Shown here piece after piece: positions 20,942-62,984 of a stretch of 64,000 nucleotides of DNA. Position 1 is the first letter of the stretch, and each line of letters starts with the position of its first letter. The notes beneath the pieces are model-generated. The model worked only from the letters and a program-made list of their open reading frames with translations. It made no database searches and had not been told where the DNA came from. Origin of the DNA: Eledone cirrhosa (Eukaryota); contig OZ024741.1 of assembly GCA_964016885.1 (NCBI GenBank), positions 286,378,001 to 286,442,000 on the forward strand, written 5' to 3'. Made by a program: the position numbers and the translations under genes.

Positions 20942-21637
20942 TCTATATAATCATTTTTAATGGGAATTTTTATGCCAACGTGATTTCCTGTACTGTGTCA
21001 GACCTGGCTTACCTCCTCTTTGATGTAACGTCACGCGTCACTAGAGGCCGTACTGCTACCATCACTTGCAACAAGCAACTGAGGGAACTAGTACGCCATT
21101 TTTTCTTTCCTTAACAGAGAGGCGAACTCCCGCTGATGAAACATCCCAAACGCCTAGTTTACGTAAATGTGTAGTATCATAACCTAACATCCTGCGCATG
21201 GCTACACCTTTCGGTGCATGAAAAGCAGATTGGGGTCGTGGGAACTGTTATAGCAGTCCGGGTACCGTACCATCTTACCCTCACGAAGTCGTCTTCCTCA
21301 CTGATTAACGAAAGTGTGCAGTTCGAATTTTAATAATTTGAAATTAGTTATTCATCGAGCGAGTGGGGAAATGGCCGAAGTTATGTCTGTTCTATTCGAC
21401 TTGCCTCGTCTCCTAGAATATATATATATATATATATATATATATATATATATATATATATATATATATATATATAGTTAAAAGAATAGAGGTGTAACAC
21501 ACAAGTTATTATATATTGGTAAACGGAATAGAAAATGCTGACAAATTGTTCACAGTTGAAAAATGGTTTAATTAGGAATAAAAGAGTATTAGTGATTGTA
21601 TGGGTTAGTGTTCAGTTGTGGTTTTAAGTTTTTAAGT

Positions 21638-21674
21638 TTTTACCGGTTGCGCATTTCTAAATGCTTTTCAAAGA
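21638..21674 (-). ncRNA. U3-A8 variant hammerhead-like motif (A13C) in PLE 3' UTR
   Basis: TTGAAAA-gcattt ag aaatgc-GCAA-CCGG-TA. Confidence 0.55.
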
Positions 21675-22863
21675 TAATTTTGAGATAGAGTGTCCGTGCT
21701 GTTTGCTCTGATCTGATTACTTTTGGGAATTCTACCTGTTTTTATGTTAAAAAAGTGGCTCCAGCGTTATTTTTGTGTTGCAAAAATTCTTGTCGTCAAA
21801 ACAATTTTGATTGGTCGGTAGAGGTCATGTGAATGTAAAAAGTTGATTTTGCGCCAAGACTGTTTTTATGTTAAAAAAGTGGCTCCAGCAAAAATTCTTG
21901 GTCAAAACAATTTTGATTGGTCGGTAGAGGTCATGTGAATAAAAAATTGGTTTTGCGCCAAGATTGAGAAATGACTCTTTCACAACAAATATGTGTGTGT
22001 GTGAGTGTGTATGTGTGTGTGTGTGTGTGTGTGTGTGTGTGTGTGTGTAGTAGTAGTAGTAGTAGTAAGGTGTTCGATGCTGCGACAATGGCCAGCAGCG
22101 ATGTGTGTCAAATGGCTATTAAGATAAGTGTGTGTGTGTGTGTGTGTGTGTGTGTGTGTGTGTGTGTGTGTGTGTGTGTGTGTGTGTGTGTGTGTAGTAG
22201 TAGTAGTAGTAGTAAGGTGTTCGATGCTGCGACAATGGCCAGCAGCGATGTGTGTCAAATGGCTATTAAGATAAGTGTGTGTGTGTGTGTGTGTGTGTGT
22301 GTGTGTGTGTGTGTGTGTGTGTGTGTGTGGCAGAGTAATTCGTGGTGGCAGGGATGGTCAGTAAGAATGTGTCTGAAAGCAATGGGGGGTATTTTAGCAT
22401 GTCAAAAGATATTTTTCAGCTTTTCTCTTATACGGAGAAGTGCGTGTGTGTGTGTGTGTGTATATATAAGTCTCTTTGTATGTTGATGTACGCGTGTGTA
22501 TGTGTTTGTGTATATATGTGTGTGTGTGTGTGTGTGTCGGTGGACCAGTATTTTTTCCCCCTGGTAAAATGGTGTACATTATTCGATTTTTTCAGTAAAA
22601 TCGGTTCTCTTAATAGAACATCAAAAATCTTAACAATAAAAGGTGTGAAATGATATTCACTATATATATATACACATACATATATTCACTATATATATAT
22701 ATATATATATATATACACATATACATACATATATATGCACATATATTTTTTTGTATTGCACCATAGAGCATGTGTGTTTACGTGTGTCATTGTGTTTATA
22801 TGTGGGTAGAGATGTATGCTGATGTAGGTATGTATGTTGACGTGTGTATGTTGTGGGTTCGTC

Positions 22864-61020: not shown

Positions 61021-61421
61021 ATACCTTCCTGCCAGATGATTGAACGTCTGAAAGTATATACTTTCCTTATGCATATTAACGCCTGAGCAGCCTAATTTGT
61101 ATATCGAGTGAGTTAATCGGCCGGGCGCACCGAAAACGATAAATGGAAAAAATGAAACGAAATTTCATTTCTCACTCTTAGTACGGCTGTTACTTAAATA
61201 TAAGTATGTATACGTACATACATATATGTATACAGACGTACAGTAGTGTGTATATATATACATACATGCACACATATATATATCTACGTATGGATTTACC
61301 GAACATTTATTATAATGCTCGGTTTGTTTGTAAACAAACATCCCGAATTAAGCCGTACAGTGTTAATATGCATAAGGAAAATATATACTTTCAGACGTTC
61401 AATCATCTGGCAGGAAGGTAT

Positions 61422-61464
61422 ACGGTGCTGACGATAGCTAATAAGCTTGAAACTAGTACATCGT
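61422..61464 (+). ncRNA. minimal type I hammerhead
   Basis: acggtg-CTGACGA-t-agct aata agct-t-GAAA-CTAG-TA-catcgt; palindromic stem III. Confidence 0.85.
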
Positions 61465-62984
61465 TCCTTTGTCAGTGTTGAACAAAAAGGCAACGATGGT
61501 TGCTAAATACTGTACGGCTTAATTCGGGATGTTTGTTTACAATCAAACCGAGCATTATAATAAATGATCGGTAAATCCATACGTATATATATATATGTGT
61601 GCATGTATGTATATATATATACATACTACTGTACGTCTGTATACATATATGTATGTACGTATACATACTTATATTTAAGTAACAGCTGTACTAAGAGTGA
61701 GAAATGAAATTTCGTTTCATTTTTTACATATACATATATATATATATATATATATATATATATATATATATACATATATATATATATATATACAGACAGG
61801 GTGTCCCAAAAATTGTATACACACTTCAACAGCACTCTAATAAATATTGCTTGTACAGGTAATCAAAGTTTGTATACACCTTTATACTGGGTAATTGCTG
61901 GCTTTGTGCTAAAAGAAGAAATAATTATTATTTGCAAAAAATGAAGAGGACAGTACTTTCCTATCAACATAGAAAGCGTGAAATCACAAAGCTGACTGTA
62001 CTGGGATTTGAACTCAGGGTCAAGAGTGCTTGACCAAATAACAATAGAGCATTCTATCCGACGTTCTTACCACCTATTTCTTAATTATAATTATCTATAT
62101 ATAGTTCATACACTGTTCTGTCTGCTTACACTGATACTCTGTAGATTTAGTGGTGACGGTGGAGAAACTTAAATAATCAAAAAAGGAAAAGAGGAATGGA
62201 AGGAAAATTCCACACCCTTGTCTGCATGATATGTCTCAGCTGTATCGCGCATACCCGATGGCGAAAGCATTGCCACCGATGATAGCCAGTGAATCAGCCA
62301 TTCCACCTAATAGAGCTTTTTTCTCAGGCGGAACGCACTAATCCCGATTTTGTGGATGAAAATGTTAGTCAGGGTACTGATTGGCATGAAAAGGTAACGG
62401 TCGATCAAATCCCAAACTTTTATATTCCAGCTGTTTCTATTTGTGCTAGAATGCAAAAACCCGGTTTTTACAACTGTAGAAGTCACTTAGACCGGACTTT
62501 CAATTTCTTATTTACCCACGTTTTTGCATGCAAACATATTGAACTACAGATGTTCAGACTGGATATCACTCTTACCAATCTTATCAGTCTAGATGGGGAC
62601 TGAGTTCAAAGAACTATTTCATGATTATAAAGGCAACGCTCATGGATATTTTACTGTCCCGAACAGTAAAAAATTCTCCTCAGATTGGAAACATTGTCCG
62701 AAAGCTTGCAGTTGTATAAACTTCACTAAAAGCACCTATAGAACAGGTAGTGGTGTTAAACAGGGCATTAGGTCTTCCACATCAAAATAGATTTCTCTCT
62801 GATTGATTTCCACACAGTACCCGTCTATTAAATGTCACTTTATGGTTTTGGCCAACTCAAAGTTATGTTAAAAGACTTGCTCTTAGTGAAGTGAAACCGA
62901 AACCAAATGGATGTAGTTGCGAAACCAACTTCTTAACCTTACAGCTATGACAGTTCCCACAGAGCTATGGTATGGTATGGTCCC

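Follow-up and report, generated by a model that had tools for sequence, protein, structure and literature searches.

How does one retroelement insertion come to consist of two inverted copies of which only one keeps a 3′ tail? The question is raised by a 64,000-bp stretch of the Eledone cirrhosa genome (contig OZ024741.1, positions 286,378,001 to 286,442,000; hereafter the window, the numbering of which is used below), in which five insertions were labelled A (21477), B (41072), C (42001), D (57100) and E (60771); a sixth family was labelled F. Raw sequence and arm-to-arm alignment showed that A–E are each made of two head-to-head arms, with the 3′ ends pointing outward into (TA)n and a tail on a single arm. 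The five inverted structures and one-sided tails described in an initial annotation of the window were thus confirmed, and RVT_1 and GIY-YIG domains supported its identification of Penelope-like elements (PLEs). The families were surveyed in the 3.0-Gb, microsatellite-rich genome. The explanation that we favour, with slightly more confidence than doubt, is PLE insertion into TA repeats in which each of the two nicked target strands primes at a fixed internal site of its own on a single RNA, with strand displacement by the second.

One tail per pair of arms

The search patterns for A–D were placed upstream of the tail, so that the first 100 matches on contig C1 were collected blind to tail status. 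The sample comprised 30 loci per family, 96 of another 97 clusters with multiple hits (the omission being a tail-to-tail cluster of A) and three extra A pairs. Two-hit clusters in the tail-blind samples were head-to-head in 102 cases and tail-to-tail in two. Tails of A–D were called automatically by pattern and checked against the sequence, four T/T (doubly tailed) and two "other" C ends being corrected. Exactly one tail was present in 123 of the 124 head-to-head pairs of A–D (A 34/35, B 39/39, C 21/21, D 29/29; two B pairs represent a local duplicate). Further samples gave 15 one-of-each pairs and one odd end for B, 15 and one odd end for E, and, for F, 17 tail-less partners of tailed arms, one odd end and one T/T pair.

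Forty unpaired anchors were traced over 10 kb: seven had a partner, always of the opposite type, one was unmappable and 32 had no partner. These 32 solo copies were tailed (19), tail-less (11) or read-through (2). Since solo copies of both types occur, and free choice at their proportions would give about 46% mixed pairs, the 123 of 124 is not a chance result (probability about 1e-38 by hand arithmetic).

The features of the window insertions are as follows, with the strand in brackets.

21477–27104: insertion A, Neptune-type PLE; tailed long arm (−), 21477 to about 25835; tail-less inverted 3′ arm (+), 25827–27104 (alignment)
21477–21509 (−): tail of A, with its end at start site 2 (alignment; read-through in tandem copies L282 and L267)
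21510–21515 (−): start site 1 TA motif of A, 6 nt, within the long arm; the + arm stops at the same motif, at about 27100
23070–25217 (−): reverse transcriptase (RT)–GIY-YIG frame of A, 715 aa, terminating within the endonuclease (Pfam RVT_1, E 3.6e-7; homologs with RVT_1 and GIY-YIG)
25148–25834 (−): C-terminal part of ORF1 of A, in −1 overlap with the RT frame at a TTTTTTA heptamer
21641–21671 (−) and 26945–26975 (+): non-canonical hammerhead-like motif of A and its second copy (motif match)
41072–41419: insertion B, a 348-bp head-to-head pair of pseudo-long terminal repeats (pLTRs) of an autonomous Neptune-type family; tail 41073–41133 (−) (alignment)
41213–41242 (−) and 41311–41340 (+): hammerhead-like motifs of B (motif match)
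42001–44066: insertion C, two 3′UTR arms; tail 44033–44066 (+) (alignment; tandem copies L321 and L331 with RT frames)
57100–60436: insertion D; tail-less longer arm (−), 57100–59320; tailed shorter arm (+), 59321–60436; tail 60401–60436
58515–59324 (−): GIY-YIG remnant in the tail-less arm of D (Pfam GIY-YIG, E 5e-7)
57205–57242 (−) and 60253–60290 (+): hammerhead-like motifs of D (motif match)
57057–57099 (−): (CT)21 run at start site 1 of D, (AG)21 on the opposite strand, derived from the element's own CTCT
60771–61727: insertion E, retrozyme-like and non-coding, a tandem repeat with hammerheads and a unit of about 430 bp; tail-less arm (−); tailed arm (+), 61362–61727; tail at about 61674–61727
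61147–61208 (−): internal read-through junction in the tail-less arm of E
60984–61014 (−) and 61428–61458 (+): hammerheads of E (motif match)
44141–44416 (−) and 47520–47799 (+): tailed copies of family F (alignment)
47147–47364 (+): solo tailed B copy, followed by a TA run and a stub, 18 nt long, from the end of the B tail, 47423–47440 (−)

The two arms differed by substitutions at 0.6% (A), 2.4% (B), 1.5% (C), 2.0% (D) and 3.2% (E) of positions, in addition to microsatellite length changes; such differences, together with unlike flanks, are not as expected of read fold-back. The two F copies resemble a pair, but both are tailed and they are 8.4% apart, so they are most likely separate insertions. 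The B tail-end stub, with TA on either side, is possibly the trace of aborted priming at site 2. A 147-bp duplication (21992–22329) is confined to the left arm of A. At a T/A homopolymer border of B (41175–41190 in the window, about 48 nt upstream of site 1) the arms differ in most pairs of an otherwise near-uniform family, which may reflect RT slippage, later slippage or sequencing error.

Start sites, target tract and identity of the elements

In each of the six families, tandem copies show sequence that passes the tail, crosses a second TA motif and enters the body, and in A–D the ORF1 ATG lies 27–29 nt past this second site (site 2; site 1 is the end of the tail-less arm). The tailed arm therefore does not mark the RNA end and both ends are internal, contrary to the earlier supposition that one strand primes at the end of the RNA. 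The match to (TA)n at site 1/site 2 was 6/3 nt in A, 4/7 in B, 5/4 in C, 4/7 in D, 5/3 in E and 4/4 in F, the two sites being 36–65 nt apart. A match of at least 3 nt was found at 12/12 sites and of at least 4 nt at 10/12, against 4–16% and 2–10% of neighbouring positions, respectively; a run could begin within 2 nt of the anchor, and the families are related, so the 12 sites are not independent.

The short end was a single fixed site in each family. Longer TA runs upstream (one of 8 nt lying 60 nt away in B; two of 12 nt in E) did not serve as an end at any of the loci found with upstream search patterns (0/30 in each family), and a TA match alone is insufficient to define a start site. Of the earlier proposal that the short arm ends at whichever internal TATA offers microhomology, the TA match stood and the opportunistic choice did not.

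Read-through RNA of A, C and D gave a common two-stem predicted fold from unlike sequences (z −1.4 to −4.2 in 14 copies); site 1 falls in the 5′ linker and site 2 in the loop, both unpaired (site 2 unpaired 0.61–0.99). The 3′ strands of the predicted stems lie past the tail, just ahead of the ORF1 start codon, so the fold would be possible only in transcripts of a pLTR–ORF junction, whether tandem or circular.

The flanks of a single insertion shared oriented interruptions in 29 of 46 cases, against 21.3 after shuffling (maximum 29 in 2,000 shuffles), with 13 cases matching the same way only versus 4 in the opposite way only; the TA tract thus pre-existed and was split. Target-site duplications were unreadable, being concealed inside (TA)n. 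The TA flanks of many loci adjoin ends of other such families (e.g., L140, L142, L235, L383), so the elements repeatedly insert into each other's TA tracts. Other dinucleotide runs were present at the far ends of TA tracts in 27/185 cases. Clustering of TA borders fused the families into one component and yielded no family count.

At site 1 of D the element reads CTC and then TATA. A CT run of at least three units, and up to 31, was present in 22/32 tail-less D arms, whereas two units were kept in 39/46 tailed arms; (GA)4 or longer occurred in 1/41 partner flanks, and CT at the joint of A–C ends in 2/222. The (GA)n at 57057 is therefore derived from the element, and the (GA)n target formerly proposed at 57100 had to be abandoned, the short arm ending there at the TATA of the family. 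The run may have been made by RT stutter or by later slippage: it showed no significant trend with age (rho 0.23, p 0.29, n 24), and the longest runs were found in older copies.

A–D are classed by their domains as four families of Neptune-type PLEs, bearing an RT and, at the C terminus, a GIY-YIG endonuclease. Pfam scans detected RVT_1 in A, GIY-YIG and RVT_1 in D and both domains in a full-length B copy (L302); in C, RT and YIG motifs were read from the broken frames of copy L321. Tandem copies elsewhere in the genome identify A–D as coding families with units of 4.7–5.3 kb, and their partial tandems yield pLTRs, an inverted copy and a tail. The translations of A and D have a CX2-5CxxC finger, a long linker before GIY-YIG and the RT ahead of the endonuclease (EN), and by-eye comparison of linker length and RT3/RT4 motifs with Figs. 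S1–S2 of Craig et al. 2021 (PMC8557442) placed them with the Neptune rows, not with Poseidon, Nematis or Hydra; Neptune itself is paraphyletic (PMC8557442). Some PLE types have a frameshifted ORF1 (PMC8557442, Fig. 1 legend).

The −1 overlap of ORF1 and RT at the TTTTTTA heptamer is common to A–D (25148–25217 (−) in the window; L282, L267, L302, L321, L248, L254). This heptamer corresponds to the slippery sequence of HIV, and its conservation points to programmed frameshifting as a probable feature of the four families; no strong fold was found downstream of the heptamer. The hammerhead-like cores in the pLTRs of A, B and D are non-canonical by motif match, and weaker in C: TTGAAAA stands where CTGANGA is expected (21641–21671, 41213–41242, 57205–57242), which would retain the 3-8 pair as U-A, and A also has GCAA for GAAA. 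Stem III is palindromic in the motifs of A, B, D and E. Among the 150 of 182 Rfam matches listed for the window there was no hammerhead, only microsatellite-driven miRNA noise. E, a non-coding tandem with a type I hammerhead of canonical core in each unit and arrays of at least eight units about 430 bp apart (L072), appears from its sequence to be like a non-LTR retrozyme. Exact 27–28-mer matches in the genome numbered 8,393 (A), 2,424 (B), 1,436 (C), 2,557 (D), 3,785 (E) and 15,197 (F).

Templates and rival explanations

Among 93 clean pairs, the tailed arm was the longer in 27 and the tail-less arm in 22, with 44 within 15 nt of each other; an excess of more than 500 nt was found in 10 pairs of each kind. 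A short tailed arm beside a long tail-less arm is impossible by cDNA fold-back, so both arms were primed on RNA, and the division of the 49 unequal pairs bears out priming from both target strands as put forward in the initial annotation. Recurrent alleles were common to both arms in 62/67 cases in A, 65/90 in C and 100/122 in D, against fractions of 0.11, 0.20 and 0.19 with shuffled partners, and this held in insertions longer than 1 kb; B was uninformative (13 vs 53, nearly all at the homopolymer border). The sharing of recurrent family alleles shows that both arms derive from a single source lineage. This comparison revealed no clear subfamily mosaic pair, and the E arms in the window showed scattered low-frequency differences without a clear two-subfamily signal; the idea that the arms represent two subfamily variants was not sustained. 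Arm lengths were coupled, within 3 nt in 30/92 pairs versus 9.4 after permutation and, outside hot spots, in 10/64 versus 1.8, as if both enzymes had run off one RNA end.

The 5′ ends of arms form hot spots inside the pLTR, at −190 in A and −131 to −149 in B, which are perhaps transcript starts; a few arms begin near the predicted hammerhead cut. A single inherited 392-bp palindromic master was considered for A and set aside in favour of recurrent formation, the same junction being found with different alleles carried by both arms. No contig or read among those listed bridged the centre of A or D, which is uninformative as such records break at repeats.

In the favoured scheme, the endonuclease would nick both strands of (TA)n. 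One target 3′ end would pair with site 1 and be extended; the other would pair with site 2, copy the tail and then displace the first cDNA, copying the same template again. The cDNA 3′ ends would be joined at the centre through short matches, and failed priming at one site would leave a solo copy of either type. Two primers could not occupy one site on one RNA, and site 1 would have to prime before being covered; this geometry is the simplest account of the one-of-each rule. The overlap of the arms had been taken to require either template re-use or two templates; that stands, and template re-use fits best. Strand displacement is a property of the R2 RT.

Several observations weigh against this scheme. 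The rule has exceptions: one n/n (doubly tail-less) pair (A, C1:9960971), the T/T pair (F, L458) and three odd ends. B retains the outer stem, but its lowest-energy fold pairs site 1 (unpaired 0.25), and E and F did not display the two-stem fold. Tailed arms are not shorter, though hindered displacement might predict so, and displacement by a PLE RT is a step that we infer. Length coupling is weak in pairs without palindromic joints (4/45 vs 1.0, p 0.009) and falls short of significance within the hot spot of B (p 0.06–0.08), and later central deletion could mimic it. A-to-G was enriched among shared alleles (16/74 vs 23/292, p 0.0014), but as a test of one versus two molecules this editing signal was non-discriminating, there being no strand bias (A>G 16 and T>C 11 of 74 rare shared alleles); two RNAs of the same source locus would share identical alleles. 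Finally, the start sites of Poseidon in vitro were reported as non-homologous to the target (PMC11167929).

Two RNAs from one source locus, held by protein or by a hammerhead dimer, might each be primed by one target strand, with the asymmetry of the complex setting site 1 versus site 2. We regard this as unlikely. It would make displacement unnecessary and agrees with tailed arms that bear no length penalty; the palindromic stem III of A, B, D and E is that of the dimer-acting hammerheads described in PLEs (PMC4209133), and a protein dimer has been modelled (PMC11167929). However, it gives no reason for 123 one-of-each pairs in 124, and the coupled arm lengths and lack of clear mosaic pairs speak against it. 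The hammerhead-held dimer, suggested as a possibility in the initial annotation, is unneeded, as the Naiads, which lack a canonical hammerhead, share the layout (PMC8557442) and insertion in vitro persists in ribozyme mutants (PMC11167929).

Somewhat less probable again is that both arms start at site 2 and that the endonuclease then cuts one of them at the site 1 TA motif during resolution, removing the tail. This is close to the "EN-mediated resolution" of Craig et al., and the same origin of the tail was proposed there (PMC8557442); site 1 copies the target motif in all six families, and work on D. virilis cited in PMC11167929 found that cleavage by the endonuclease needed the tail. Yet the RT starts at both sites in vitro (PMC11167929), tail-less solo copies are common (11/32), longer TA runs nearby are left uncut, and site 1 is predicted to be single-stranded in the RNA, as a template would be.

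Self-priming, in which one cDNA folds back and copies itself into the second arm as proposed for rotifer PLEs, is argued for in PMC3846280 and would suit the identical alleles of the two arms and the central hot spots at short natural palindromes (e.g., −190 in A). It is largely refuted by arm lengths and is very improbable: a fold-back cannot hold sequence absent from its template, yet the tail-less arm exceeds a shorter tailed partner in 22/49 pairs (by more than 500 nt in 10), and the T/T or n/n pairs that it predicts number two in more than 170. Least credible of all is that both arms were once tailed and one tail was later lost through deletion between the TA motif inside the element and the TA tract beside it, or that the palindromes are assembly fold-backs, because, although TA tracts often change length in this genome and there is no read evidence over the junctions, young pairs without arm differences are already one-tailed, double loss is almost absent, the arms diverge by 0.6–3.2% with differing flanks and lengths, and the junctions are many and distinct.

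A broader form of the favoured scheme is put forward tentatively and is more doubtful than it is probable. A structured RNA domain would hold two telomerase-like template sites matching the target, and a dimeric RT would prime both nicked strands on one RNA, copy it twice by displacement and stutter at the start (the CT runs of D), thereby lengthening and diversifying host microsatellites. If true, a single mechanism would underlie the tail, the inverted pLTR and the bias toward microsatellites. The formation of tandem and inverted PLE ends and the microsatellite preference have been named as an open question (PMC8557442), which the present counts make sharply testable through two defined start sites in each family, an RNA fold obtained by prediction and the one-of-each rule. 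The families are young and abundant (1,400–15,000 exact matches each), and thus good sources for an in vitro system, and A–F shape a large share of the TA tracts of this genome.

Other features of the window include two related broken LINE-like copies, 75% alike (12637–15266 (−), with an APE-type endonuclease domain, and 29943–32226 (+)); another repeat family, with copies in both orientations, direct and inverted, adjoining (ACAT)n and TA runs (37960–38558, 39728–40355, 44760–45205), with which a coding remnant at 38737–39234 goes; a 117-bp tandem array of 7.6 copies (6789–7695); and a 411-bp direct repeat, 98% identical (54637–55047 and 56228–56638).

Comparison with known systems

In L1 twin priming, both target strands prime on one RNA, and microhomology joins the cDNA ends so that an inversion results. 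The L1 arms show no overlap and their inner site varies; here the sites are fixed, 36–65 nt apart, and the arms overlap upstream from site 1. The process favoured here works like twin priming but is not of the L1 type.

Short internal matches to the target repeat mark the start of copying in the endonuclease-deficient Athena and Coprina PLEs (summarised in PMC8557442), which attach to telomeres without an endonuclease and by a single primed end, whereas A–D bear an endonuclease and probably have two primed ends. A first scan of metagenomes for relatives found nothing. In a metagenome collection, distant RT–GIY-YIG relatives (27–29% identity) end in telomere-like (CCCTAG)n in tandem arrays, and their internal read-through copies hold a short stretch matching that repeat at the same point in 5 of the 6 loci that terminate in it (L512, L517, L522, L529 and L530; not L513); no inverted arms were seen in the loci examined. 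E resembles the non-LTR retrozymes, which have been linked to pLTRs (bioRxiv 10.64898/2026.07.22.740005), in that it is non-coding and repeats in tandem a unit of about 430 bp, each unit with a type I hammerhead; its full PLE footprint of two arms and one tail, in 15 pairs, is a direct sign of PLE-driven insertion.

The closest biochemical parallel is Poseidon PAc, in which both strands were nicked and extended in vitro from two internal start sites bounding the tail, with a modelled dimer (Frangieh et al. 2024, PMC11167929); a stem-loop is present, sequence beyond the tail is needed and hammerhead catalysis is dispensable. The present families share the two flanking start sites and, in A, C and D by prediction, the stem-loop and its need for sequence past the tail. 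The PAc sites lie inside the ORF, whereas those found here match (TA)n, and site 2 of A–D precedes the ORF1 ATG. In the excerpts of PMC11167929 the two start sites are not linked to the two arms of one insertion.

EN+ PLE insertions are known to comprise partial tandems, an inverted 5′-truncated copy and a tail of 30–40 bp, often at one end only, with a preference for (TA)n (Craig et al. 2021, PMC8557442, Fig. 2 legend; Pen2a_Av, Arkhipova et al. 2013, PMC3846280), and the window insertions share this layout. Published accounts treat it as optional or frequent and attribute it to resolution by the endonuclease or to self-priming; here one-of-each is near-absolute, tails reach 65 nt and both ends fall on target-like motifs. 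For PLEs, full-text searching, which did not extend to Arkhipova 2006 and Pyatkov 2004, brought up no count of a one-of-each rule, no pair of start sites matched to the target and no double priming on a single RNA, and the excerpts of PMC12602865 and PMC13282606 contained nothing on element ends. The architecture itself, an inverted copy with a one-sided tail, and two internal RT start sites in vitro were thus already published; newly added here are the near-absolute one-of-each rule, a fixed pair of start sites that match the target and lie in a common predicted RNA fold, and the coupled arms of a single lineage.

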